64,000 nucleotides of DNA from a virus, in IMG/VR virus record IMGVR_UViG_3300027653_000012, positions 502 to 64,501 of that record; one strand, written 5' to 3'. Positions within the stretch are counted from its first letter, which is position 1. Each line of letters starts with the position of its first letter. The position numbers were made by a program, and so were the translations under genes. The notes below the pieces were generated by a model that was not told where the DNA came from, made no database searches, and saw only the letters and a program-made list of their open reading frames with translations. Of this stretch, positions 5,763 through 20,889 are shown piece after piece.

Positions 5763-6212
5763 ATGTCTTCATTTAACAAAGTCATTCTAATGGGCAACCT
5801 GGTGCGCGACCCAGAGTTGCGAATAGCGGCGTCCGACCTGCCTGTCTGCAAGTTCACAATGGCAGTGAATCGCCGCTTTGCCCGAAAGGACGGGGAAATA
5901 GCAGAGGAAGTTTGCTACATCGATGTCACCGCGTTTGGGCGCAGAGCCGAAGTTCTTGCCGACCACATGCAAAAAGGAAGCCCTATTCATATTGAGGGCC
6001 GCTTACAACTAGAACAATGGGAGGATTCAAACACAGGCCAGAAGCGAAGCAAGATAGGCGTCATCCTTGAGTCTTTCTCCTTCGTCGGATCAAAGAACAA
6101 GGACGAAGACGATGGTGTTTCTCTAAAGGATTATTCAGCAAAGAAACAGTCTGCGCCTGTCAAGAACACAACAAGCCAGTCTGAGTATGATGAAGAGGAT
6201 GTTCCTTTTTAA
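5763..6212 (+). CDS. ssb: Single-stranded DNA-binding protein
   Basis: NKVILMGNLVRDPELR, IEGRLQ, acidic C-terminal EDVPF. Confidence 0.97.
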   Translation: MSSFNKVILMGNLVRDPELRIAASDLPVCKFTMAVNRRFARKDGEIAEEVCYIDVTAFGRRAEVLADHMQKGSPIHIEGRLQLEQWEDSNTGQKRSKIGVILESFSFVGSKNKDEDDGVSLKDYSAKKQSAPVKNTTSQSEYDEEDVPF

Positions 6213-6256
6213 AATCATAATTACAAATCACATTCATCACAGAAAAAAGGACAACA

Positions 6257-6460
6257 ATGAGTGAGGTTATCAGATTCAAGCCCGGCTATTATAAAGGGGT
6301 TTCCGCGATATTTGAGGACCCTAAATCGGAAAGCGAAATCATTATCATGGCTCCAGATATTTCCCGCCTCGAAAAGCATCTGGCAAGATGGACGCTGGAC
6401 TGGAGGAAGGAGCTGTTCAAGCCAGCGAGGCTGGTCTTGCTCAATAAGAAAGAGACATAA
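6257..6460 (+). CDS. Hypothetical protein
   Basis: AAGGA SD; fills the gap between ssb and rep. Confidence 0.6.
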   Translation: MSEVIRFKPGYYKGVSAIFEDPKSESEIIIMAPDISRLEKHLARWTLDWRKELFKPARLVLLNKKET

Positions 6461-6468
6461 CCGCCGAT

Positions 6469-7395
6469 ATGTCTGGTTGGATTAAATTGCACCGCTCGAT
6501 TCTAGACCATCCGAGAGCGTCAGACCCCGATTGGGTTGCTGTCTGGATTTACCTGCTCGTCAACGCGGCGCACAAACCTCAGCGAGCACTATTCAATGGC
6601 AAGATAATAACCCTCGAACCCGGTCAACTTTTGACCGGTAGAAAGGTCATTTCGGAGGCAACAGGAGTCGGTGAACCAAAGACCAAACGCCTGCTTTATA
6701 CGATGGAAAGGGAGGGGCAAATTAGGCGCAAAAGTAGCCACAAAGGATCGCTAATCTCGATAAAAAACTGGGGCGAATATCAGGGAGATGGTGGACAACT
6801 GAATGGACAACAAGAAAAATCCCTAACCCCCTTACAGTTTGGCATTAATGAAAGAGAAAAAAACGAAACGGACAGCAGAACGGACAACTGGTGGACAACT
6901 GGTGGACAACTGAATGGACAACAAAAAGAACTCCTAACTACCTTGAAATCTGACACTAACGAAACGAGAGAAAAACAAAGTGGACAACTGGATTCTCGGA
7001 AAGTGGACACTGTACAAGAAGACAAGAATAAGAATATAGAGGATACTGACGTATCCTCTCGTCCATCGAAAAAGCCTGATCCAAAAAATACCGAGAAATA
7101 CCAGAAAATCGCCGACGCCTGGAACGAACTGAACGGCCTTCCAAAAGTCGAGCGGCTGACAGACAAACGCAAAACAAGCCTCCGATCCCGACTCTCCGAT
7201 CCGTATTGGCGCGAAAACTGGCAACGGGCGATGGAGCAAATCCCGTCGAGCGACTTCCTTTCCGGACGAAAAACGAAATGGCGAGCAACCTTCGACTGGT
7301 TCATCCGACCGGAATCGGTCGTCAAGATCATCGAAGGCCAATACCACGACGGCGCCCGACAGCCGACCATCTATTCCGATTCCGAAAAATATTGA
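6469..7395 (+). CDS. Phage replication initiator (replisome organiser/DnaD-like)
   Basis: MSGWIKLHR N-terminus, ISIKNWGEYQ, central repeats, C-terminal W.ATFDW...KIIEGQY. Confidence 0.9.
   Translation: MSGWIKLHRSILDHPRASDPDWVAVWIYLLVNAAHKPQRALFNGKIITLEPGQLLTGRKVISEATGVGEPKTKRLLYTMEREGQIRRKSSHKGSLISIKNWGEYQGDGGQLNGQQEKSLTPLQFGINEREKNETDSRTDNWWTTGGQLNGQQKELLTTLKSDTNETREKQSGQLDSRKVDTVQEDKNKNIEDTDVSSRPSKKPDPKNTEKYQKIADAWNELNGLPKVERLTDKRKTSLRSRLSDPYWRENWQRAMEQIPSSDFLSGRKTKWRATFDWFIRPESVVKIIEGQYHDGARQPTIYSDSEKY
6790..7010 (+). repeat. Iteron-like GGACAAC(TGAAT/TGGT) repeats; probable replication origin
   Basis: Seven GGACAAC copies inside rep, mostly at 11-12 bp spacing, next to A-rich tracts. 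Confidence 0.75.
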
Positions 7396-7400
7396 TAACA

Positions 7401-8273
7401 ATGACCATGACCGTAGAGACCACCAAGACCACCAACCCACAATCAGTAGTGCTCCGAGTTTTCGAGGCAGTAGGCTTCCGCATCGCCAATGATCCCGACG
7501 CTCGATCACAATGGGAACAACTGCTCGTATCCACCTGGAGCAACCGTGACGATGTGTGGCAACCAGGACGCTGCAAAGGCTGCGCGAAGATGATTGCTAG
7601 CCAAGCCAGCGAGATCGACAACGAAAACACCGACAACCCGTTCCTCGCCGCAATCAGGTCTCACGTGGCAACAGTGTGCGGGGCCTGTACTCGCTTGGCG
7701 GACGATCACTACCACAACCTCGGACGACAACCAGTCAAGGCTGGATGGTGGGAGACCAACTGCCCGCCAACCTTTCAGACACTACTCGCCGACCGAACAG
7801 CCGAAAAGGTCGACTGGAGACGTGTCGAAACGGTCGAGAAATGGAATTTTAAAAGAAAAGCGAAAGGACTGATCCTCACTGGCGACACAGGATCAGGCAA
7901 AACAACCGCTCTGTGGGGTCTAGCAAGGCGTTTAAAGAAGGAAGGTAGGCATCTCTACCTGTTGACATCGATCGAGCTTTCTAGACGGCTTCAAGCGGCC
8001 GCAAAAGAAATGCAGGCAGACCACGACCTCCTTCACTGCGATTTCCTGCTCATCGACGACCTCGGAAAAGAAAAGCTAACCACAACCGTCGGTGCAGCTC
8101 TCTACGAGCTAATGGACCAACGACTCGCCCACAACCGATGGATGGCATTCACCACCCGATTCACCGGCGACCAACTCGAAGACCGATTCATAGACACACA
8201 CCTTGGCCGAGACATCCGCCGCCGCATCCAAGATGCTTGCACACACCTACGATTCAAAGGAGGCGGGATCTAA
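7401..8273 (+). CDS. DnaC/IstB-like helicase loader ATPase
   Basis: GDTGSGKT Walker A, LLIDDLGKE Walker B; directly after rep. Confidence 0.92.
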   Translation: MTMTVETTKTTNPQSVVLRVFEAVGFRIANDPDARSQWEQLLVSTWSNRDDVWQPGRCKGCAKMIASQASEIDNENTDNPFLAAIRSHVATVCGACTRLADDHYHNLGRQPVKAGWWETNCPPTFQTLLADRTAEKVDWRRVETVEKWNFKRKAKGLILTGDTGSGKTTALWGLARRLKKEGRHLYLLTSIELSRRLQAAAKEMQADHDLLHCDFLLIDDLGKEKLTTTVGAALYELMDQRLAHNRWMAFTTRFTGDQLEDRFIDTHLGRDIRRRIQDACTHLRFKGGGI

Positions 8274-8274
8274 G

Positions 8275-8556
8275 ATGAAACAAAAACAACCAACACGATG
8301 GCCCAGCTTCGGAGCACGCAGAAAATCTCACCCGACCATCTCACCCGGCCAACCATTCATCTATCTCGGTCGCAGCATGCGCGTCACAACGGTATCGCGA
8401 AAACTCATCACAGCCCACTACGTCAACAATTCCGGAAACATCCAAACAATCACCATCCCAACCGACGCAGCCAAAACTTGCATCCCAACCCCTACAGACT
8501 CACCCGACACAGAAATCGACAACGACAACGACCCACGATTCGTCGAACTCAACTAA
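8275..8556 (+). CDS. Hypothetical protein
   Basis: ATG just after the loader stop codon. Confidence 0.6.
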   Translation: MKQKQPTRWPSFGARRKSHPTISPGQPFIYLGRSMRVTTVSRKLITAHYVNNSGNIQTITIPTDAAKTCIPTPTDSPDTEIDNDNDPRFVELN

Positions 8557-8582
8557 CCACTAAAAACACACGAACAAAAGAC

Positions 8583-8717
8583 ATGATCGTAAAACCCATC
8601 CAAGGAGCTTGCCCAACATGCTGGAGAAGAAAAGCACGAGCAATCCCATGGAAACCAGGAACAACCTGCTGGAACTGCGGACTCCCAAAATCTAAACCAA
8701 AACCCAAACCTCCCTAA
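8583..8717 (+). CDS. Small Zn-ribbon protein
   Basis: CPTC ... CWNC in 44 aa. Confidence 0.55.
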   Translation: MIVKPIQGACPTCWRRKARAIPWKPGTTCWNCGLPKSKPKPKPP

Positions 8718-9043
8718 CCACCCCAGCCAAAACCACCACGATCACCCTCCTCAAAATTCTCATCCAACCAACAACCAGCCCCACGATACAGAGCCTTACC
8801 AGGCATCCAACAACCACATCCCAAACTACTCCCAACCTCCGGCCTACACCTCCGAAGACGACGATCATACACCGGACAAACTGAACACGCCCGCATCCTC
8901 CTGCGCCACTCCACACGCGATACCCTCCCACTACCAACCAAACGAAACCAGCCAACCACTACCCCAAACAGGACCCAAATACCAACCTCACCAACACCAA
9001 CACAAACAACACGAAACCAACAACAAATACGCCGAAAACCCAT
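8714..9043 (-). CDS. Cys-rich Zn-binding protein
   Basis: RRMRACSVCP ... C ... GCGCWMPGK ... CW; start placed at internal ATG 9043. Confidence 0.65.
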   Translation of the reverse strand: MGFRRICCWFRVVCVGVGEVGIWVLFGVVVGWFRLVGSGRVSRVEWRRRMRACSVCPVYDRRLRRCRPEVGSSLGCGCWMPGKALYRGAGCWLDENFEEGDRGGFGWGG

Positions 9044-9689
9044 AACTACAACCCATGACAACAAAACCACAGGCCCGCAAACCAGAAAGTTGAGAAGAGC
9101 GGTATATATAAAAACTGGCGACCAATACCCATTTCCCCCCTCCCCGCCCCCTATTTTGACCTCTTTTTTATGCTGTTTTTGCAGGCGTTTTTTGGCCTGT
9201 AATCTCATTGTAGTGAGATTACATGACCATACGTAAACCGCTTATTTACAATAACTTGCGACATTGAAGAGTGTTAACTCAAGCAAGTTTATCGCAAGAA
9301 CAACTGGAAAAGCCAAAGATTGCTAAAATCCTGAACTCAAGAAACGGAGTGCTTGATTGATCCAATTTGAATGGCTTGTCGTGACTGTTGCAATGGCTTG
9401 AAACGTATGCCTTCCACCCTGTTTTGCGTCTACCCTATCAGTTTGCTTTGTCGTTGACTTTGAACGGTTTAAGGTAGTTTTTGAGCGGATAAAATGGTTT
9501 GAGAACTGTATCCATGCATGTTTGGCAGTCTGTATGTGTTTTGGCAGTGATATTATATCAAATTTTATCCTACGGATTGACTTGTCAATTGTGTATTTGT
9601 TTTGGTTGTCATAAGTCTTTGATGTTGAACAAGATACTTGTGTGGTTTTGTGCTGATTTTGAAACGTTTTATGAGGTTTTTGCTAGATG

Positions 9690-10123
9690 TAGACGCCGTC
9701 CGACGGGACGACATAGGAAACTGGCATGGGTCCAGCGTCTAGGGCCCTCTCTCGGTTGAGCGAGCCAGTGGCTGAAGCGAAGCTTCCTGAAAGCGTGTGC
9801 GCGAATCCTGATAGCAGAAAGCTGTGGATAGGGAAGGCCTTGCGAAAGCAAGGCGGGAAAGACCCAACCCAATGGGTGAATCCGATAGCGAATCCGATAG
9901 CGATTTGTCAAAAAGTTAAAAGTCTACTTTTGGCAATCGCAAGGGTTTTTAAAAGGTGCAAGGAGCCTTTCCATTCTTTGGCAATTAGCAACTGCTAGAG
10001 ACTTGGTTGAACCTAGCGGAAAAGACTGAAGTGAAATCTAACTTTAAATCGAAACGGCTGGAATCCCTAAAAAACGAAACTGTCACGCGGTTTCATAAGC
10101 GCAAAAAAGGGATTTCAACCGTC
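9690..10123 (+). ncRNA. Candidate large structured leader/ncRNA ending at the hammerhead 1 cleavage site
   Basis: Dense stems: tagacgc/gcgtcta, actggc/gccagt, gccttgc-GAAA-gcaaggc, gcgatttgtcaaaaagt/acttttggcaatcgc; no convincing ORF. Confidence 0.5.
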
Positions 10124-10160
10124 TTGCGTCTTGGCAAAGCGCAACTGATGAGATTGCCAC
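10047..10160 (+). ncRNA. Type II hammerhead ribozyme 1
   Basis: aatc-GAAA-stem III (cggctggaatccct/agggatttcaaccg)-GTC-stem I (ttgcg/cgcaa)-CTGATGA-gatt; cleavage after 10123. Confidence 0.9.
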
Positions 10161-10188
10161 AAAAAATAAGTAAAAAGGATAAATTAAG

Positions 10189-10575
10189 ATGAAAAACACA
10201 ACTCCATTTGAAACGGTTAAAACCATCAATCGCGAAGGGAAGAAAGTCTTGTCGCGAAAGCGATTTGGCGAAATCCATGGCTTGAAAGGCGCCGAACTGA
10301 AGCGGCGCCATTACGAATATCTGCTTTCAAATCCCTTAAGCGATATGGTCCAGAACGTCACCTGGTCCAGGGTGACCAGGAATCCAAAAACCGGGCACGT
10401 CTCGGCCAGCGGCTATGATGCCGCGGCCATGGCAAAGAAGGCGCCGAAAGCGCCGCGGCGCAGGAAGGCGAAGGTCGTGTCGATCACCGATGCGATGGCC
10501 GTCCTCCAGGCGGCCGCTCAAGAGGGCAATCAACAAGCAATTGCCGCCCTTGAGGCGGTTGTTGCCGGTCAGTAA
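10189..10575 (+). CDS. Basic hypothetical early protein
   Basis: AAGGA SD; flanked by hammerheads 1 and 2. Confidence 0.8.
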   Translation: MKNTTPFETVKTINREGKKVLSRKRFGEIHGLKGAELKRRHYEYLLSNPLSDMVQNVTWSRVTRNPKTGHVSASGYDAAAMAKKAPKAPRRRKAKVVSITDAMAVLQAAAQEGNQQAIAALEAVVAGQ

Positions 10576-10581
10576 TATAAA

Positions 10582-10650
10582 TCGAAACACGCACTGCAAA
10601 CGCGGTGCGTGTCTTGCGTCTTGGCAAGACGCAACTGATGAGAACGCCAT
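10582..10650 (+). ncRNA. Type II hammerhead ribozyme 2
   Basis: tc-GAAA-cacgcactgc/gcggtgcgtg-TC-ttgcgtc/gacgcaa-CTGATGA-ga; cleavage after 10613; stem II only about 2 bp. Confidence 0.85.
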
Positions 10651-10670
10651 AACAAACAAACAAGGATACC

Positions 10671-10853
10671 ATGAGTAACGCAGAAATTGTCAAAAAAATC
10701 GAGGCCGCGAAAGCGGCGGCTGGCTTCAATGACCAAATCAAGGTCATTGAAGCCCTGAACGAGGTGCTGGAGCATCTCCGCCGGGAAGAGCGGGTTGTGG
10801 ACGCGCGGGAAGATTCCATGTCTTATGACCGGAGCTTCCTCGCCGGTCAGTGA
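10671..10853 (+). CDS. Small hypothetical early protein
   Basis: AAGGA SD; between hammerhead 2 and the twister. Confidence 0.75.
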   Translation: MSNAEIVKKIEAAKAAAGFNDQIKVIEALNEVLEHLRREERVVDAREDSMSYDRSFLAGQ

Positions 10854-10889
10854 GTGCAATGTTCCTTGACGTTATGTGACGTCAGGGAA

Positions 10890-10959
10890 CTGGTTAATGC
10901 AACCTGGCTATCTTGGATGGTCAGACGGTTCCAAGTCCGTGTAAATGCAGAGGAACCAG
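10890..10959 (+). ncRNA. Twister ribozyme (type P1)
   Basis: P1 ctggt/accag, T^AA, P2 tgca/tgca, P3 tggctatc/gatggtca, P4 acgg/ccgt with loop ttccaagt, L1 GAGGA. Confidence 0.9.
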
Positions 10960-11062
10960 AGGTTCGCTGTGAACCTCGCTTACGGTCGGATGTTACTCCG
11001 AATCCGGCTGTGAGACAGATGACCGATCGGAGCAAGACGCGTGAGAGGCGCGCTTTTTAGAC

Positions 11063-11344
11063 ATGAAAACACTTACAAGAAAAGAACTGGCGGGAACGTC
11101 ATTCAATATGGGCCTCTCCATCATGCATGGAGAGTCCCGGCAGGTAGTTCGGTTCGGCGCGTGTCAATACGCAACCGACACCTCCGCCACCGTCATCAAG
11201 GACGGTGGAGACATCGTTCTCATCACCGAGAGTAGTCTCGGTGATGGCAGCCGTCCTGAACATCGGGAGGTCCTGGTCCGCCCCGTTTGGGTCGGGGGCT
11301 GGGATGCCGACCCAGAAAAAGAGGAGGACTGGCTACTTCTCTAA
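11063..11344 (+). CDS. Hypothetical early protein
   Basis: ATG after a hairpin cluster; MKT start typical of this operon. Confidence 0.65.
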   Translation: MKTLTRKELAGTSFNMGLSIMHGESRQVVRFGACQYATDTSATVIKDGGDIVLITESSLGDGSRPEHREVLVRPVWVGGWDADPEKEEDWLLL

Positions 11345-11400
11345 CACACGAATGCCGCTCTGCGAGTAACAGAGCGGCTGATTAACCACAAAAAGAAAAA

Positions 11401-11694
11401 ATGAAAACTGGATTCAAGATCAAGAGAATCAGCCATATGGCTGAAGAACCCGTCCGCGTGACGGGGGACGAAGTTGAGATCGTGGACAACCCAACGATCT
11501 CGTTGGCCGACGGCTGCAAGGCTCAGAAACTCCCATTTACATGGGGGTGCCAAGCGGCCGCGTGTTACGCGGTATTCTCCCCTGAGGGGGAGTTTATCGG
11601 ATTCGAGAAGGGCACGGGGGGCCGTGCCCCATATGTAGCCGAAGATGGCTACTTTTCCTGCGAGGAAGAGGATTCCTACCAGGACGAAGAATGA
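11401..11694 (+). CDS. Hypothetical early protein with acidic C-terminus
   Basis: A-rich leader, ATG at 11401. Confidence 0.7.
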   Translation: MKTGFKIKRISHMAEEPVRVTGDEVEIVDNPTISLADGCKAQKLPFTWGCQAAACYAVFSPEGEFIGFEKGTGGRAPYVAEDGYFSCEEEDSYQDEE

Positions 11695-11765
11695 GGCAAT
11701 CTACCGTGATACCGTGAGTGACCGGGAAACCGGCGGCTAAACACCTAAATAGAAAAGAAATAACT

Positions 11766-12143
11766 ATGATCAATATCAAAAACCTCACCCCCCACGCCAT
11801 CCGCGTCTTTGCCGCGGATGGCACGACCGAACTCGTCACCGTGCCGCCCTCGGGTACGGTGGCACGCGCCAGCGTCTCCTACGAGGAGAGCGGCGTCGTC
11901 CCGATCGAGGGCGACGCGGAAGCTCTCCTCAGTCGGGATCCCCTCGCCGGGATTCCCGTCTACGTCTCCGTCATGGGAGACGTAGAGGGACTCCCGGAGC
12001 CGGAAGCAGGGACGGTCTACATCGTCTCCACTCTCGTCCGGCAGGCGTTGCCCCGCCGGACTGACCTGCTCTCCCCCGGGGAGCTAATCCGCAACGAGGC
12101 CGGTCAGCCCATCGGCTGCCGCGGCCTCGTTGCAAACAGCTGA
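11766..12143 (+). CDS. NLTPH-motif protein (candidate cyclic-oligonucleotide ring nuclease)
   Basis: KNLTPHAI ... GLPEP...YIVS.LV ... R.DL..P...IRNEAGQPIGC. Confidence 0.7.
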   Translation: MINIKNLTPHAIRVFAADGTTELVTVPPSGTVARASVSYEESGVVPIEGDAEALLSRDPLAGIPVYVSVMGDVEGLPEPEAGTVYIVSTLVRQALPRRTDLLSPGELIRNEAGQPIGCRGLVANS

Positions 12144-12146
12144 CCT

Positions 12147-12323
12147 ATGAGCGGCCTGATGAAGGTTATGAAGGTTATTTGCGCCTGGTGCGGTCTGTTG
12201 ATCCGCGATGGGCGCGAGCCTGTTTCTCACGGGATCTGCGACCGTTGCAAAGCCCGTGAGCTTGGTCGGCTCAAAGTTACTGAGACCGACCGAGCCTACT
12301 GGGAACCGGTCGAGTCGGACTAA
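12147..12323 (+). CDS. Small Zn-finger protein (58 aa)
   Basis: VICAWCG ... SHGICDRC; below the ORF-track cutoff. Confidence 0.75.
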   Translation: MSGLMKVMKVICAWCGLLIRDGREPVSHGICDRCKARELGRLKVTETDRAYWEPVESD

Positions 12324-12415
12324 AACGGGACGCGAGTCTTGCGAGAGATGGGAGGAGGAGTAAGTTTGCGCCGATGGGATGGCCCCAAAGGCTTAACCAA
12401 CAACAACACACACAC

Positions 12416-12754
12416 ATGAAGACCATGAAAAAAACCATCACAGAATCAGACTTCACGGCAGCGTTCCACAACATGGGGCGCGGCGATCAATTCAGCTATT
12501 CCGGCCTTAAGGCCTTGTTCGGATACCTGGAGGAAATGGAGGAAGGCACAGGCGAGGAGCTGGAACTGGACGTTATCGCGCTCTGCTGCGACTTCGCGGA
12601 ATATGACACGGCGATTGAAGCAGCGTCCGAATATAGCTGGAAGCCAGATGAGGACGAGGACGACGAAGAGAACGAGGCGCAGGCCCTGAAATGGCTGAAC
12701 GACAGAACAACCGTCATCACGTTTGATGGAGGCATTATCATTCAGCAGTTCTGA
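12416..12754 (+). CDS. Acidic early phage protein
   Basis: FSYSGLKALFGYLEE ... ELDVIALCCDFAEY; strongly D/E-rich. Confidence 0.8.
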   Translation: MKTMKKTITESDFTAAFHNMGRGDQFSYSGLKALFGYLEEMEEGTGEELELDVIALCCDFAEYDTAIEAASEYSWKPDEDEDDEENEAQALKWLNDRTTVITFDGGIIIQQF

Positions 12755-12757
12755 AAC

Positions 12758-12820
12758 GTCGAAACCGGCACCCTTGGCCGGTCTGGTGGGTTGGCATCCC
12801 GCCACTGATGAGACTGCCAA
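12758..12820 (+). ncRNA. Type II hammerhead ribozyme 3
   Basis: gtc-GAAA-ccggc/gccgg-TC-tggtggg/cccgcca-CTGATGA-gac; loop I ttggca pairs with 3' tgccaa; cleavage after 12783. Confidence 0.93.
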
Positions 12821-12837
12821 ACAAACAAAAAGCAACC

Positions 12838-13236
12838 ATGAAAGAAGCAAAGAACATGAAAGAAGCAAAGACAAAAGAGGCGATTGAGCGCCACTGCCGT
12901 GGCCTGCTTGCGATCTTCCCGAATGCAAGCGAGACAGACCCAACTAAGCTCTACAAGGAGCTTAAGAGGCTCGAGGATCGGGCCCACAAGCTGGCCGAGG
13001 ACTATTGCAACGGGCACGTTGACTCGGACGGGTGGGAGGCGAAGCGGGACAAGATCCGCGACAAGCTGAACACATTACTTAACCCGGGAGACGTCCCCGT
13101 TTTTCTCAACGGGGATCCTCGCGGATACGCGCTGAAGATCGAGGATGAATGGATGAGGGAGGCTCTTAGCAGCGGCAAAAAACTTCAAACAGATTGGGGC
13201 GGGTATGGTTTGTTGGCTCCGGATCTGACGGAGTAA
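12838..13236 (+). CDS. Hypothetical early phage protein
   Basis: NGDPRGYALKI and DWGGYGLLAP motifs; A/C-rich leader. Confidence 0.8.
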   Translation: MKEAKNMKEAKTKEAIERHCRGLLAIFPNASETDPTKLYKELKRLEDRAHKLAEDYCNGHVDSDGWEAKRDKIRDKLNTLLNPGDVPVFLNGDPRGYALKIEDEWMREALSSGKKLQTDWGGYGLLAPDLTE

Positions 13237-13269
13237 ACCAAAACCAAAACCAAAAACAGAAAGAAAGAA

Positions 13270-13509
13270 ATGAAAATGAAAAACAATACAAAAAACCTTA
13301 GAACAATCCAAGCCCTCGCAGACAACGGAGAGGGTGTCCTATCCCAGACCCAGATCGTCATCGAAAGATCGGGAAACGGCTGGTCTGTCGCTGACGGACC
13401 TGAAATCACCCATGATCACCCGGAAGAGATCCGCGGATGGGGCCGCCTCGACGGCCCTGCTTTCAGACAGAAAAATGGCCTCCTCATACCGGCTCGGGGC
13501 CTCGCATAA
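13270..13509 (+). CDS. Hypothetical early protein
   Basis: A-rich leader. Confidence 0.6.
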   Translation: MKMKNNTKNLRTIQALADNGEGVLSQTQIVIERSGNGWSVADGPEITHDHPEEIRGWGRLDGPAFRQKNGLLIPARGLA

Positions 13510-13883
13510 CCATAGAGCCGCCGGTTTCCCGGCGGCGAATAACCAGAAAAACGCTCAGACCCAGAGCTAAAACGGAGAATAAAAAAATGACCTATACAAA
13601 ACAAGACGCCCTCAACCGGATCAACGGAACCATCGTAAAAAACAGCGTCGTCTACTACGACGACGCAATGGCGGAATACTACGTCGGGCCAGCCTCCGAC
13701 ATCGACGATCTGGTCGAGCTGATGAACTCCGACGACGAGGACATCGCACGGGACGCATACTCCCACTGGTGCGCCGGAACCTCCCATGGAGACGGATACG
13801 AGACCGAGGAGGAAGCAATCGCCGCCGCGGAAGAAAACTAAAAACCACCATAGAGCCGCCGGGAAACCGGCGGCTGAATAACC
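13509..13883 (+). repeat. Intergenic hairpin repeat ACCATAGA-GCCGCCGG-N4-CCGGCGGC-(T)GAATAACC (copies 13509-13544 and 13847-13883)
   Basis: Two near-identical copies; variants at 11354-11387, 11711-11745 and possibly 15438-15470. Confidence 0.85.
13587..13841 (+). CDS. Very acidic small protein (DNA-mimic/anti-defence candidate)
   Basis: 84 aa, D/E-rich, flanked by the hairpin repeats. Confidence 0.75.
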   Translation: MTYTKQDALNRINGTIVKNSVVYYDDAMAEYYVGPASDIDDLVELMNSDDEDIARDAYSHWCAGTSHGDGYETEEEAIAAAEEN

Positions 13884-13905
13884 CTCAAAAAAGAAAGAAA
13901 AGACA

Positions 13906-14112
13906 ATGACAGCCGCACAAGAAATCATAAAATCCACGCGCAGCGATAAGAAACGCCACGAGCTGGCCCTCGAACGCTGCAAATTCCACCTCGACGAACA
14001 AGAGGTTATTGCCGCCCAGCGGGACGATGGCTGGAGCACGACCGCGATATACGAGTTCGCGGATGGGTCCTCACTCCGCGAAAACGGCATGGGCTGGCAC
14101 GCGGAAGGATGA
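13906..14112 (+). CDS. Hypothetical early protein
   Basis: A-rich leader after a hairpin repeat. Confidence 0.65.
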   Translation: MTAAQEIIKSTRSDKKRHELALERCKFHLDEQEVIAAQRDDGWSTTAIYEFADGSSLRENGMGWHAEG

Positions 14113-14290
14113 GTCCAGCCGAATACATGGTGTCTGGATCTCGTCCAGCACGCCCGTGTTCTCCAGGGAATATGAGACCCTGGAAGGCGATTTGATCGGC
14201 GATGTCGATTCCGCGATGGGAGATCGGATTGACGCCGCACTAAAATACGACTGGGAGAAGAAGCACAAACGCTAAGTCGCCCGCCCAACC

Positions 14291-14336
14291 GCACGAGCAA
14301 ACCCGGCACCCTCACACGGTCCGGGTTTTTTCGTGC
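14291..14336 (+). terminator. Intrinsic terminator-like hairpin
   Basis: aaacccgg ... ccgggtttttt inside the longer gcacga/tcgtgc stem. Confidence 0.6.
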
Positions 14337-14365
14337 CCAAACCACAACCATCAAACCAAATTCCA

Positions 14366-14851
14366 ATGAAAACAAAACCAAAAAGAAAGATCACACCCGC
14401 CCAAAAGGAGGCGGCGAAACAGAGACGTGAGCAGCTCAAATCGCTCACAAAACAGGCGGAATCCATGGAGGTCTCAGGAGTAATCGAGACCGTCGAAGGA
14501 CACCCTCTTTCGGACGTAAACGCAGCACTCGTGCTGGTTCAGTGTCCAGCGGCAACCATCGTCGGTGGCTTCCGTCAATGGAAGAAGCACGGCCGACAGG
14601 TGATGAAAGGGCAGAAGGGAATCGCCATCTGGTTTCCGTGCAGGACGAAACAGGAGGACGAGGATGCCGAAGATCAGAGCCGGACGTTCTTCCGTGTCGG
14701 CACCGTCTTCGACATCAGCCAGACGGAGGAGATGCCGGAGGGAGCCGAGACCACCGAGCGAAAACCCCGGCGTGAAACGAAACGCGAGGCTCCTGCCAGG
14801 AGGAAAGCGGAACCGAGCCATGAGGATCTGCTCGCGGCCTTGAATTTCTGA
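14366..14851 (+). CDS. ArdC-like N-terminal ssDNA-binding (anti-restriction) protein
   Basis: N..LV..QCP.AT.VGGFRQWKK.GRQV.KGQKGIAIW.P ... VFDISQTE. Confidence 0.85.
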   Translation: MKTKPKRKITPAQKEAAKQRREQLKSLTKQAESMEVSGVIETVEGHPLSDVNAALVLVQCPAATIVGGFRQWKKHGRQVMKGQKGIAIWFPCRTKQEDEDAEDQSRTFFRVGTVFDISQTEEMPEGAETTERKPRRETKREAPARRKAEPSHEDLLAALNF

Positions 14852-14882
14852 AACCACGAACCAACCAAACATTAGACATAAT

Positions 14883-15308
14883 ATGAGAACTGCATTTGAG
14901 TCAGAAGCCAAAGAACAATACGGCATTAGCTGCACAGAGGCCGTGCAACGTGGATTGATTACGCGGGGAATCCGCTGGAGTCACCGGAAGAAGGATTATG
15001 TTGACGATGGGTGGGAGCCCATCAACTGCGGAGGTAAATTCACGACACAGAAAGCGGCACTCGATGCCTACATGGCGCAAGAGAAGAAAGAGCGGGATAA
15101 GGCCATTGCGCGAGCAAACTCCATAACCTACGCGGATCTTCCGGAGTGCTGTAAGTCAGTCATGCCCGAGATAGGGTTCACTGAAGATCACGCACGCAAG
15201 GCAATCCGCCGCCTTCGATCCTGGGTTTGGGATGAAGGGATCTCCGTTCCGCAGGAAACAACGGATAAATACTTCGCCTTCATCAAACAGCGGATGGGGG
15301 TCATTTAA
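14883..15308 (+). CDS. Hypothetical protein
   Basis: 141-aa ORF in the operon direction. Confidence 0.7.
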   Translation: MRTAFESEAKEQYGISCTEAVQRGLITRGIRWSHRKKDYVDDGWEPINCGGKFTTQKAALDAYMAQEKKERDKAIARANSITYADLPECCKSVMPEIGFTEDHARKAIRRLRSWVWDEGISVPQETTDKYFAFIKQRMGVI

Positions 15309-15503
15309 GCGGAGTAGGTCCGACTAAATAACCCGTCGTAAAAAGCAAAGCCCCGTCTCTCCTACTTACGTATCTCACGCGCCGCGTGAGACTTCGGAGA
15401 AGACAGGGCTTACTCACTACCTATCACACTACCTATCACCTATGCGGACTCTCAGTGGTTCGCTGAATAGTAAAAACAAAAGACATCAATCCAACAAGCA
15501 AAA

Positions 15504-16829
15504 ATGAAAACAAAAGTAAAAGCAAAAACCCAACCAACCGAAAAGCAGAAGATGGAACGCGCTCATGAAGCGGTGCAGGAAATTCACCGAACCAATGCTG
15601 AGGCACGCGAGGCCATCGACCGCTACCTGAAGCAGCGCGGTGTCACGATGGACAGCCTCTCCGACCAGTCGGATGGCTTTCGCAAAGACTGCTATGGAGC
15701 CGTCCGCGACGCCCTCCAATCCGGCGATTGGAGCAAGCTGACACACGTTCAGCGATTCGATCCGCTGACATCAGTTCCAGCCCAGGAGCCAGCAGCTAAA
15801 GCAGATCCAGTTGAGGTAGCGGCTACAGTTGTCGAAGAGTCTGAAGCTACGCCTGAAATGTTATCCCAAAACAAGGATAGCAATCCTGCAGCGCTTTTGC
15901 AGCAGGCGATCGAGGAGATGGTCGCTTCTCGGGTCAACAAGCCCGCGATTGACGAGAGTCGATTCAAAGAGCTGTTCGATCATGAGATCCAGAACGGGAT
16001 CGAGTGGGACAAAACCGGGGTGGTGAAGCTCCTGGACGAGCGTGTTGAGGCCGCAAGGAACGGGATCGCCCGCCGCATTGAAATTTTCCTTCCCGATGGC
16101 AAGAAGAGGGAAACGGAGCGGCAGCACAAGGGTTTCGATACGCTCCTGAAGCTCTGCTCGCTGCGAAAGAACGTGATGCTCGTCGGTCCTGCGGCCAGCG
16201 GCAAGACCACCGTTGCGGAGAACGTGGCGAAGGTTCTCGACCTTCCGTTTCACCCTATGAGCATTGGTCTGCAGACGAGCAAGGGTGACCTGATGGGTGT
16301 CAAGTTCGCAGATGGTAGCTATCAGCCTTCCCCGTTGCGGAAAGCATACGAGCACGGCGGGGTGGTTCTTCTCGACGAGTTCGACGCAGGGCACGCCGGG
16401 GTGAATACGATCATTAATGCGGCAACGGCAAACGCGGTGTGCGGCTTCCCTGACGGGACTGTAAAGCGACATAAGGACTTCATCTGCATCGTGGCTATGA
16501 ACACATGGGGGTGGGGCGCGAACGATCAATACGTGGGTCGCAACAAGCTCGACGCGGCAACGCTCGACCGATTCCTGAAACTTCCGTGGGAATACGACGA
16601 GGATCTTGAGCGAGAGATTGCGGGGAACCGAGAGTGGACGGATCGGGTGCAGGCATTGCGCCGCGCCGCCGGTAAGGTTCAGGCGAAGGTTCTCATCTCA
16701 CCCCGTGCCTCGATCAACGGAGCCGATCTTCTCGCCGCTGGCTTCGATTGGGATGAAGTGGAAAATATGACCATCTGGAACGGTGTTGACCGTGCCACCA
16801 AGGAGAAAGTGTTGAGCAATGTCGAGTAA
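15504..16829 (+). CDS. MoxR/CbbQ-type AAA+ ATPase
   Basis: GPAASGKT, LLDEFD, YVGRNKLDAATLDRF, ISPR. Confidence 0.92.
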   Translation: MKTKVKAKTQPTEKQKMERAHEAVQEIHRTNAEAREAIDRYLKQRGVTMDSLSDQSDGFRKDCYGAVRDALQSGDWSKLTHVQRFDPLTSVPAQEPAAKADPVEVAATVVEESEATPEMLSQNKDSNPAALLQQAIEEMVASRVNKPAIDESRFKELFDHEIQNGIEWDKTGVVKLLDERVEAARNGIARRIEIFLPDGKKRETERQHKGFDTLLKLCSLRKNVMLVGPAASGKTTVAENVAKVLDLPFHPMSIGLQTSKGDLMGVKFADGSYQPSPLRKAYEHGGVVLLDEFDAGHAGVNTIINAATANAVCGFPDGTVKRHKDFICIVAMNTWGWGANDQYVGRNKLDAATLDRFLKLPWEYDEDLEREIAGNREWTDRVQALRRAAGKVQAKVLISPRASINGADLLAAGFDWDEVENMTIWNGVDRATKEKVLSNVE

Positions 16830-17673
16830 GATCGAGTTTCATCGTCAGTGGGATTCCTTCTCTGACTTGATTGATACGGCCCGCCGGGAAAACTGGCGGG
16901 ACCGGAAAGACGGCGAGGCTTCCGTCAAGAAATACGTTAACATCGGCAGCGATAGCACAAAGCGCTTCTGCGGCGTCGATTCGTTCGATCATGCCCTGCG
17001 CCTGGTCGATCACGGGTGGCCGGAAGGGCTGGAGAAAACCGAGCCTTTCATTGAGGCCCTGCGAAACAAAGTTGGTGGCAAGATCAGGCGTCCGGCCTTT
17101 GCCATCGGCGACGAGGGCGACGAGTTCCTTCTCGATCGCGTCATCGAAGGAGATCCGGAGTGCTGGCTCGCCACTGAGTGGGAAGAGGTTGATCAGGCTG
17201 GCGAGATCGTCCGCATCGGAGTGGACATGGGGATCGCCTGCTATGTCAGCGCGACCTCCATCGTAAACCGGGGCGCGGCGATCATGGCTGCGGTAGAAAT
17301 GCTTATGGCATCCGGCCGATCCGTGCAGCTCGACGCTTTCTACGGGAATAGCCTGGGGTATTACTCGGTGGCGAAGATCAAAGACACCGACGACACGTTC
17401 GATCGGGACCGCATGGCCTTCGTTTTGGTTCATCCGGCGATGCTGCGATGTATCCTCTTCTCCGCATGGGACAACGAAGACCCCGCGATCTTCCAGCGTT
17501 ACGTCACCCCGAGCTATGGCAGCCCAACCATTCCCGAGAAAGCCCATGCCGATTACGACATGCTTTTCCCTGGTTCCGCCGCGGAATGCGGATGGGACAC
17601 ACAGGAGAAGGCGCAAACATCCATAATCAAAGCATTGGAAGACAAGGGGTTTGTTGAGTCTTACGGCGATTGA
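16819..17673 (+). CDS. vWA-like partner of the MoxR ATPase
   Basis: Overlaps the ATPase; GDPECW, RGAAI.A.VE.L, AF.L.HPAMLR. Confidence 0.7.
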   Translation: MSSKIEFHRQWDSFSDLIDTARRENWRDRKDGEASVKKYVNIGSDSTKRFCGVDSFDHALRLVDHGWPEGLEKTEPFIEALRNKVGGKIRRPAFAIGDEGDEFLLDRVIEGDPECWLATEWEEVDQAGEIVRIGVDMGIACYVSATSIVNRGAAIMAAVEMLMASGRSVQLDAFYGNSLGYYSVAKIKDTDDTFDRDRMAFVLVHPAMLRCILFSAWDNEDPAIFQRYVTPSYGSPTIPEKAHADYDMLFPGSAAECGWDTQEKAQTSIIKALEDKGFVESYGD

Positions 17674-19857: not shown

Positions 19858-20889
19858 TTGAAATTCAGAAGAAACAAAAAGAGCAATATCATCTACGTTG
19901 AGTTCAAGGGTGAGAATGGCCGCGTATCCATGTCCACCCGCACCCGCGACATGGCAGAAGCAAAGGCGCTCGCCGAAGAAATAGGCATAGCCCATATCGA
20001 ACAGCTGGCCCGCCTCAATGCCATGGCTGCCGGAGCAGTGCAGCTTGCTATTTCTGGGAGACAGATCAAAGGGAGCCAGGCACTCAAAGAATGGAAGGAG
20101 TACTTGGAGCGCGTCTCACGCAGCACGCGTACAATCGAAAACAACCTGTGGTCAGTCAAAAGATTCTTGCGGCATCAGAACCTTGGCAACCGCCCGATCT
20201 CTGCGGTGTCGGAGGTTCACGTAGATGACTTCATCAACGACAAGAACTCGAAAGTAGTGGCTTCCACCCGGCGTCGCAATCTTACAGCCGTCCGATCCTT
20301 TCTTGAGTTTTGCACAGCCAAGAGATACATCATGAGCAATCCGGCTGTACTTGTTCCTGTGAAGCTTGAAAACATGACCCACAGCCAGAAGGAACCAAAG
20401 AGAGTTCAGCCGTTCACCGCCCACGAGGTGAAGAAGATGACCACTTTGTTACAAGGGGAATGGAGGCCCGCGGTTATTATTGCACTCGATGCAGGACTTC
20501 GCCTCGGCGATGTTTGCAAGCTTGAGTGGGACTCGTTTGACACAGAGCCAGGCCGGATTGTTGTCTGGACAGACAAGCGTGACAAGCGTGTCAGCCTCCC
20601 AATGACCGACCGTCTTCGCGATCTGAAGTCCGAACTCCCGCGCAAGAGTAAGCGATGGGTGCTCCCCTCACTCGCCAAAGACTATCAGGCAAGCCAGTCT
20701 TCCGTGTCGGTGAATTTCGGTAGGGAGCTTCGCAAGATTGGAATCGCCAAGGGGAAGAGTTTTCAAAGCCTCCGCGCTACCTTCGCCCGGAGGTGGCGAG
20801 GCTACGGAAAGACGGTTGACGAGATCCGCGAAGCCCTGGGCCACGACGACGAGGCGACGACGAAGAAGCATTACTTAGGAGAGAAATAG
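19858..20889 (+). CDS. int: Tyrosine recombinase/integrase
   Basis: SAM-like domain, AGLRLGD, K, QSLR (HxLR variant), LGH, C-terminal Y. Confidence 0.9.
   Translation: MKFRRNKKSNIIYVEFKGENGRVSMSTRTRDMAEAKALAEEIGIAHIEQLARLNAMAAGAVQLAISGRQIKGSQALKEWKEYLERVSRSTRTIENNLWSVKRFLRHQNLGNRPISAVSEVHVDDFINDKNSKVVASTRRRNLTAVRSFLEFCTAKRYIMSNPAVLVPVKLENMTHSQKEPKRVQPFTAHEVKKMTTLLQGEWRPAVIIALDAGLRLGDVCKLEWDSFDTEPGRIVVWTDKRDKRVSLPMTDRLRDLKSELPRKSKRWVLPSLAKDYQASQSSVSVNFGRELRKIGIAKGKSFQSLRATFARRWRGYGKTVDEIREALGHDDEATTKKHYLGEK

Follow-up and report, generated by a model that had tools for sequence, protein, structure and literature searches.

Three type II hammerheads and a type-P1 twister, predicted from sequence, at gene boundaries of a probable small-gene operon in a temperate phage

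A run of small plus-strand genes in a temperate phage carries four predicted self-cleaving ribozymes: three copies of the type II hammerhead (HH1, HH2 and HH3) and one type-P1 twister. All four are on the coding strand, in stop-to-start spacers, and lie within 2.8 kb of phage DNA. The DNA that was analyzed (the window) is 64,000 nt long and covers bases 502-64501 of the 64.5-kb IMG/VR virus record IMGVR_UViG_3300027653_000012, which is classed as a virus and has a completeness estimate of 92%. The only sequencing run listed for this region is a soil metagenome DNA run. Judged from its gene content, which is that of a temperate tailed phage, the source is a temperate phage, uncultured and assembled from a soil metagenome. 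We consider it likely that the small genes form an operon and that the four ribozymes act in cis, cutting the polycistronic RNA into pieces at gene boundaries. This arrangement is ordinary. The layout has been described in phages since 2011, and a new mechanism is not implied. The coordinates of all features are collected in Table 1.

The first-pass annotation of the window, made from the letters alone, had placed type II hammerheads at 10047, 10582 and 12758. Complete cores and three stems are found at each of these positions in the sequence, by a structural descriptor and by a covariance model (R1, see below). The order of elements is the same in all three copies: 5' strand of stem II, GAAA, stem III, GUC, stem I, CUGAUGA, 3' strand of stem II and GCCA. 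This is the type II topology, with stem II open and with stems III and I closed by loops, as scored by the descriptor. The core sequences CUGAUGA, GAAA and GUC are unsubstituted in each copy. The core-adjacent pairs A15.1-U16.1, G10.1-C11.1 and U1.1-A2.1 are also present in each, in agreement with the acceptance rule of Perreault et al. 2011 (PMC3088659).

In HH1, the core is found at 10051-10054 (GAAA), 10121-10123 (GUC) and 10145-10151 (CUGAUGA). Stem II has 4 bp (A10047-C10050 with G10152-U10155) and stem I has 6 bp. Stem III consists of 14 pairs and one C.A mismatch, of which the gap-free descriptor counts the 4 pairs before the mismatch. It encloses an insertion of about 40 nt with its own inner hairpin and a second CGAAAC at 10074, which is probably unused. 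A register via this inner CGAAAC, which appeared in the R1 alignment, was rejected because of its poor stem III and stem II pairing; the register via C10050 gives 14 and 4 pairs, respectively. In HH2, the core is at 10584-10587, 10611-10613 and 10635-10641 (same order), with stems of 8-11 bp (III), 7-9 bp (I) and 2 bp (II). In HH3, it is at 12761-12764, 12781-12783 and 12805-12811, with stems of 6 bp (III), 7 bp (I) and 3 bp (II). The minimum free energy (MFE) folds include the long stem III of HH1 as well as stems III and I of HH2 (z -4.39).

A pseudoknot between loop I (TTGGCA in the DNA) and a 3' GCCA had also been described, and it stands. Loop I is UUGGCA in every copy. Its possible pairing with the GCCA tail downstream of stem II spans 4 bp in HH2 (UGGC/GCCA), 6 bp in HH3 and 4-6 bp in HH1, compared to a minimum of 4 pairs for this pseudoknot. 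The placement claimed relative to the genes (18-30 nt before a start codon, copies 2 and 3 directly after a stop) is likewise borne out: GCCA is separated from the ATG that follows by 29, 21 and 18 nt in HH1, HH2 and HH3, respectively. The 5' strand of stem II begins 6 nt past the TAA of gene 1 (10573-10575) in HH2 and 3 nt past the TGA of gene 7 (12752-12754) in HH3. A script run on the sequence found the proposed cut sites, after 10123, 10613 and 12783, to be correct as positions.

There is no enrichment of the CTGATGA heptamer alone in the window: its 15 occurrences compare with an expectation of 9.25, and a count of 15 was attained in 8 of 100 shuffles. The descriptor of the whole type II motif (GAAA, stem III of at least 4 pairs, U-H, stem I of at least 4 pairs, CUGAUGA, stem II of at least 2 pairs) has three matches on the plus strand of the window, none on its minus strand and none in 200 dinucleotide shuffles. 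Rfam family RF02276 (Hammerhead_II) matches HH3 over its full length, with 45 bits compared to a gathering cut-off of 37. IMG/VR was scanned for the loop/core/tail pattern, which yielded at least 121 loci. From the loci listed, 44 distinct bona fide hammerheads were parsed, and the 34 with a length of up to 75 nt were aligned. The covariance model R1 was built from these 34 hammerheads, all from other IMG/VR contigs, with the window sequence excluded. R1 has exactly three matches in the window at E <= 10, namely HH3 (74 bits, E 4.4e-15), HH2 (63.8 bits, E 9.4e-13) and HH1 (53.4 bits, E 2.4e-10). On these sequence grounds, HH1, HH2 and HH3 are genuine type II hammerheads of the pseudoknot type.

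The family alignment contains 78 R1 matches (74 distinct rows) from the window and 91 loci. Standard pairs are found in 95.5% of its cells, and both sides have changed in 15 of the 20 pairs. None of 500 shuffles matches the observed values, and slid controls are 30-40% paired. Seed loci were chosen by TTGGCA...GCCA, so that the invariance of their pseudoknot is by construction; the flanking array copies were not selected in this way, and their pseudoknots show covariation (UUCGC/GCGAA, UGGCC/GGCCA, UGACC/GGUCA). Among the loci listed, arrays on other viral contigs are larger than the set of three in the window: R1 detects 9, 5 and 4 type II hammerheads, all on one strand in each array and spread over 2-4.4 kb (L069, L017 and L042, from G001, G002 and G003, respectively). 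Some array copies on other contigs have core variants (CUGAAGA, CUGACGA, CCGAUGA).

The twister is located in the spacer between genes 2 and 3. In a permissive scan, positions 1-68 of Rfam model RF03160, which is the full model, were aligned (60.0 bits, E 7e-12). The MFE fold corresponds to P1, P2, P3 and P4 of the model; stems P1, P2 and P4 are present, as is UAA at the cleavage dinucleotide. The sequence departs from the conserved letters at four sites, with G-C changed to A-U at model positions 12/46 and C-G changed to U-A at 40/64. According to the tertiary pairing scheme (pseudoknots T1 and T2) given in a review (PMC5408937), and by our own mapping of the model onto it, the four changes would amount to two compensatory tertiary pairs, 12/46 in T2 and 40/64 in T1.

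Table 1. Ribozymes, structured spacer elements and genes in the window (positions are those of the window).
Feature	Position	Strand	Remarks
SSB, DnaD-like and DnaC-like loaders	5763-8273	+	family matches
HH1 (type II hammerhead copy 1)	10047..10159	+	leader of gene 1; predicted cut after C10123
Gene 1	10189..10575	+	128 aa; no PHROG, Pfam or NCBIfam match; HH1 and HH2 on either side
HH2 (type II hammerhead copy 2)	10582..10649	+	gene 1/gene 2 spacer; predicted cut after C10613
Gene 2	10671..10853	+	60 aa; no PHROG, Pfam or NCBIfam match; HH2 on one side, twister on the other
12-bp hairpin	10861..10890	+	directly abuts P1 of the twister; pairing judged by eye
Type-P1 twister	10891..10958	+	gene 2/gene 3 spacer; predicted cut between U10895 and A10896
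Structured tail of gene 2/gene 3 spacer	10959..11062	+	a pair of stable hairpins and, after them, a weak hairpin resembling a terminator; fold z -2.63
Gene 3	11063-11344	+	
Gene 4	11401-11694	+	
Gene 5	11766-12143	+	matches phrog_30542/21731
Gene 6	12147-12323	+	
Gene 7	12416-12754	+	matches phrog_9974
HH3 (type II hammerhead copy 3)	12758..12820	+	gene 7/gene 8 spacer; predicted cut after C12783
Genes 8 onward	12838-13236, 13270-13509, 13587-13841, 13906-14112; possible open reading frame 14009-14275	+	no family matches
Hairpin and U6 run	14291..14336	+	-27.8 kcal/mol, z -5.24; absent from the list of a simple terminator scan
ArdC-N-like protein	14333-14851	+	family match
Integrase	19858-20889	+	family match

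From the motifs, their family membership, their covariation and their placement, we infer cotranscription of the small genes, cleavage of the transcript and an effect of cleavage on RNA stability, as follows. Each ribozyme would fold during transcription and would cut its own backbone (after C10123, C10613, U10895 and C12783). Five pieces are predicted: a discarded leader, a piece of 490 nt with gene 1 alone, a piece of 282 nt with gene 2 alone, a piece of 1.9 kb with genes 3-7 and a piece that starts at 12784, runs as far as the terminator near 14330 and holds gene 8 and the genes that follow. Self-scission by hammerhead and twister ribozymes yields an upstream piece with a 2',3'-cyclic phosphate and a downstream piece with a 5'-OH (PMC8782182, PMC6765202), and the ends foreseen in the first-pass annotation agree with this chemistry. 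The 3' products of the hammerheads would thus begin with a 5'-OH that leads straight into stem I, whose hairpin would be held by the GCCA tail; a start codon follows after 18-29 nt. The 5' products would have stem III as their terminal hairpin and would carry the 2',3'-cyclic phosphate. Ends of this kind would be poor substrates for host end-dependent RNases, which may give each cistron its own stability and translation. The claim that the transcript is cut into small mRNAs agrees with the standard published interpretation (Perreault et al. 2011). The first-pass annotation had missed the twister. Because of the twister at 10891-10958, the stretch from HH2 to HH3 would be cut again after U10895. 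That the small-gene run is expressed early, as also presumed there, is an assumption.

Several points weigh against this interpretation. The MFE fold is not the hammerhead fold for HH1 (-21.2 kcal/mol for the hammerhead with the inner hairpin omitted vs -32.2 kcal/mol) or for HH3 (-22.7 vs -28.3 kcal/mol), in a nearest-neighbour comparison which leaves the pseudoknot and the tertiary contacts uncounted. In HH1, the outer two pairs of the pseudoknot compete with stem II, and stem II of HH2 has 2 bp only. In a 701-nt search with RF02276 (10000-10700), HH1 and HH2 stay unlisted even at E <= 10. The twister is 7 bits short of the RF03160 gathering score (60.0 vs 67.2). A weak terminator-like hairpin followed by a U5 run at 11038-11057 could split the transcription unit. 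No promoter stood out in the region 8600-15600, where the scan found 4 promoter-like sites vs 3.7 expected and was uninformative. The effect of the predicted ends on RNA stability is drawn from general knowledge of bacterial RNases and RNA decay.

The low Rfam scores and the short stem II of HH2 might be taken to mean that the elements are inactive relics, look-alikes which have lost cleavage. We regard this as highly improbable. The core is at consensus in every copy, the same stem II combinations recur on other contigs, and stems II may be as short as two pairs, which Perreault et al. (PMC3088659) call common. In 20 fetched loci, 16 hammerheads are reported at the Rfam cut-off, compared to 41 by R1 at E <= 0.001, and the miss of HH1 and HH2 is thus attributed to limited sensitivity. 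In terms of sequence, these two are members of a UUGGCA/GCCA subclass that is weakly scored by the Rfam model. Standard phage annotation via Rfam undercounts such hammerheads, missing two of the three in the window and most of those on other viral contigs. The shortfall of the twister would be explained by its compensatory changes in tertiary pairs, because a covariance model cannot credit them. It is also very unlikely that cutting is regulated, with a factor or the terminating ribosome switching HH1 with its insertion, or the copies that begin 3-6 nt past a stop codon. Regulated cleavage was raised for phage hammerheads in Perreault et al. 2011, and the unusual insertion of HH1, with its inner hairpin and second CGAAAC, as well as the close spacing to stop codons would fit. 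However, other members of the family have long insertions in stem III as well (98 nt in L047, 89 nt in L091), and no ligand- or protein-binding motif was recognized in Rfam searches of the region. Somewhat less improbable, yet still unlikely, is that the ribozyme halves serve mainly as short homologies for the exchange of small accessory genes among phages, with cleavage being secondary. The 3' halves of HH1 to HH3 are the top direct-repeat family (D1) of the first 21 kb, and those of HH1 and HH2 share 86% identity across 49 nt, with unrelated stems III. Gene 7 homologs (phrog_9974) adjoin a hammerhead in 11 other loci among those listed, 7 being located after the ribozyme and 4 before it. This association is biased, however, as the loci were fetched by their hammerheads, and the one homolog that was fetched by its protein sequence (from a Chloroflexota metagenome-assembled genome) has no hammerhead within 3 kb according to R1. 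It came from a gene 7 family search of genome contigs, in which a 4-sequence alignment led to this one locus and an 8-sequence alignment was too diverse. The stems vary freely between copies, which leaves little homology. Stems and catalytic core are kept by covariation across 74 distinct sequences, so that selection would act on the RNA fold and not on DNA identity.

A further possibility is that the cut pieces are rejoined. The piece 10124-10613 with gene 1 might be joined end to end, by the hammerhead reverse reaction or by a host ligase of the RtcB type, or its flanks might be joined so that gene 1 is skipped. The predicted ends have suitable chemistry. The piece has GAUU from HH1 at its 5' end and AAUC from HH2 at its 3' end, from which a full hammerhead with a 4-bp stem II could be rebuilt. 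A fully complementary chimeric stem II is found in 20 of 30 adjacent array pairs, compared to 25% of inter-locus pairs. Neighboring copies, however, are more alike at all stems (identity 0.71-0.74 vs 0.44-0.45 for stem II, 0.51-0.55 vs 0.35-0.39 for stems I and III), and the compatibility of stems II is therefore explained by shared descent. A test of selection for stem II compatibility between ribozymes is confounded by paralogy. Pfam scans of 72 open reading frame (ORF) translations revealed no RNA ligase, RtcB or kinase domain. Perreault et al. (PMC3088659) considered circular and spliced products and state that these were looked for and not detected. Rejoining of either kind is considered very unlikely. 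There is equally little to expect of the stronger version, in which the gene 1 piece is closed into a circular, translatable mRNA of 490 nt and the stem II compatibility in arrays was selected for closure instead of being a by-product of duplication. Compared with rejoining, simple cutting into linear pieces is preferred. Lying between two compatible hammerheads, the gene 1 unit offers a compact test of whether RNAs of this kind are cut only or also rejoined.

Ribozyme-rich neighborhoods in bacteria have reportedly served in the discovery of newer ribozyme classes. According to a review (PMC6765202), clusters of bacterial ribozymes combine different classes and occur near certain genes; the review states the same proposed role in transcript processing and calls the biological role of such phage elements unresolved. 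The region described here resembles these neighborhoods in that hammerheads and a twister are close together near recurrent small genes. It differs in that no new ribozyme class is found, the other spacers having plain hairpins. The first natural type II hammerheads were described by Perreault et al. 2011, with the loop I/tail pseudoknot and near integrases. In prophages, multiple hammerheads flank single genes or short gene blocks, and processing of long phage transcripts into operon-length or single-gene-length mRNAs was proposed. The window matches these prophage clusters in having same-strand hammerheads in the spacers of an operon of phage genes and an integrase in the vicinity. It also shares their type II topology, the pseudoknot of loop I and the 3' tail, the short stem II and the proposed role. 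The differences are that the phage is another one, uncultured, from soil and with its own set of genes, and that one slot is taken by a twister; compared with their description, this is no difference of kind. For Desulfovibrio vulgaris, a cyPhyRNA-seq study (PMC8782182) reports in vivo and in vitro cleavage by three type II hammerheads in the neighborhood of phage-like genes. Ribozyme type and gene neighborhood are the same there, and two of the D. vulgaris copies are about 300 nt apart. Those hammerheads are experimentally validated, whereas the three in the window are predictions. The window adds a well-formed example, with three hammerheads and a twister in one operon, to the RNA-processing elements of phages.

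The small plus-strand genes span from about 10189 to 14275. About a dozen small ORFs lie between a gene-poor stretch of about 1 kb (9209-10188) and the hairpin with the U6 run, and the ribozymes are in the first 2.8 kb of this run. The hairpin with the U6 run (14291-14336) is likely an intrinsic terminator which closes the small-gene transcription unit. Over 25 nt, it shares 76% identity with the part of HH3 around stem III at 12762-12786 (repeat family D20); this may be chance or the leftover of a lost hammerhead. In the remaining spacers, permissive Rfam scans (8000-17000, 10000-10700 and 10940-12430) found no pistol, hatchet, twister-sister or other ribozyme. Three of them hold very stable plain hairpins (11354-11378, 13517-13536, 13854-13875; z -3.8 to -5.4). 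These GC-rich hairpins occupy the same stop-to-start slot as the ribozymes, directly after a stop codon and each followed by GA(A/U)UAACC, and they have no Rfam match. The hairpin regions are 11354-11387, 13509-13545 and 13847-13885; the latter two are direct repeats with 86% identity, and the loops of these two are complementary to each other.

Among the small genes, a search of PHROGs, Pfam and NCBIfam gave family matches only for gene 5, gene 7 and the ArdC-N-like protein (14333-14851). The phrog_9974 family, to which gene 7 belongs, consists of acidic proteins of about 110 aa with a conserved ELD..(A/S)(I/L/V)(C/R)CD(F/Y/W) and a C-terminal FDGG(V/I)(I/L)V. On unrelated viral contigs (L006, L018, L055, L066, L052, L032, L027 and others), members are immediate neighbors of type II hammerheads. 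The start of gene 8 has a perfect 17-nt tandem duplication (CATGAAAGAAGCAAAGA, twice, within 12808-12871). In the same region (12808-12871), the AUG within CUGAUGA of HH3 is in frame with gene 8, and the reading is open, which would allow an extension of gene 8 by 10 codons. Family scans show that the plus strand of the window also encodes an AAA_5 ATPase, DUF7192 and RadC, and that the minus strand encodes the terminase large subunit, tail fiber repeats and very large structural ORFs. Neither a blastn search of a phage collection with 9000-14000 nor an IMG/VR protein search with the AAA_5 protein returned a match.

On the minus strand, an ORF of 164 aa (8714-9208) corresponds to a strongly C/A-rich tract of the plus strand and has no family match. 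It may be non-genic, in which case the gene-poor stretch before HH1 would be about 1.5 kb long. The gene-poor 1 kb before HH1 is AT-rich except for a GC-rich, strongly folding island at 9685-9915 (-85 kcal/mol, z -2.78, none of 200 shuffles equally stable), which has no Rfam match at E <= 1. On the minus strand at 15347-15412, Rfam DUF3800-VIII RNA has a full-length match with 64.4 bits, compared to a cut-off of 40.2. A 195-nt spacer that separates two plus-strand genes (14883-15308 and 15504-16829) holds this match, whose strand is opposite to theirs.

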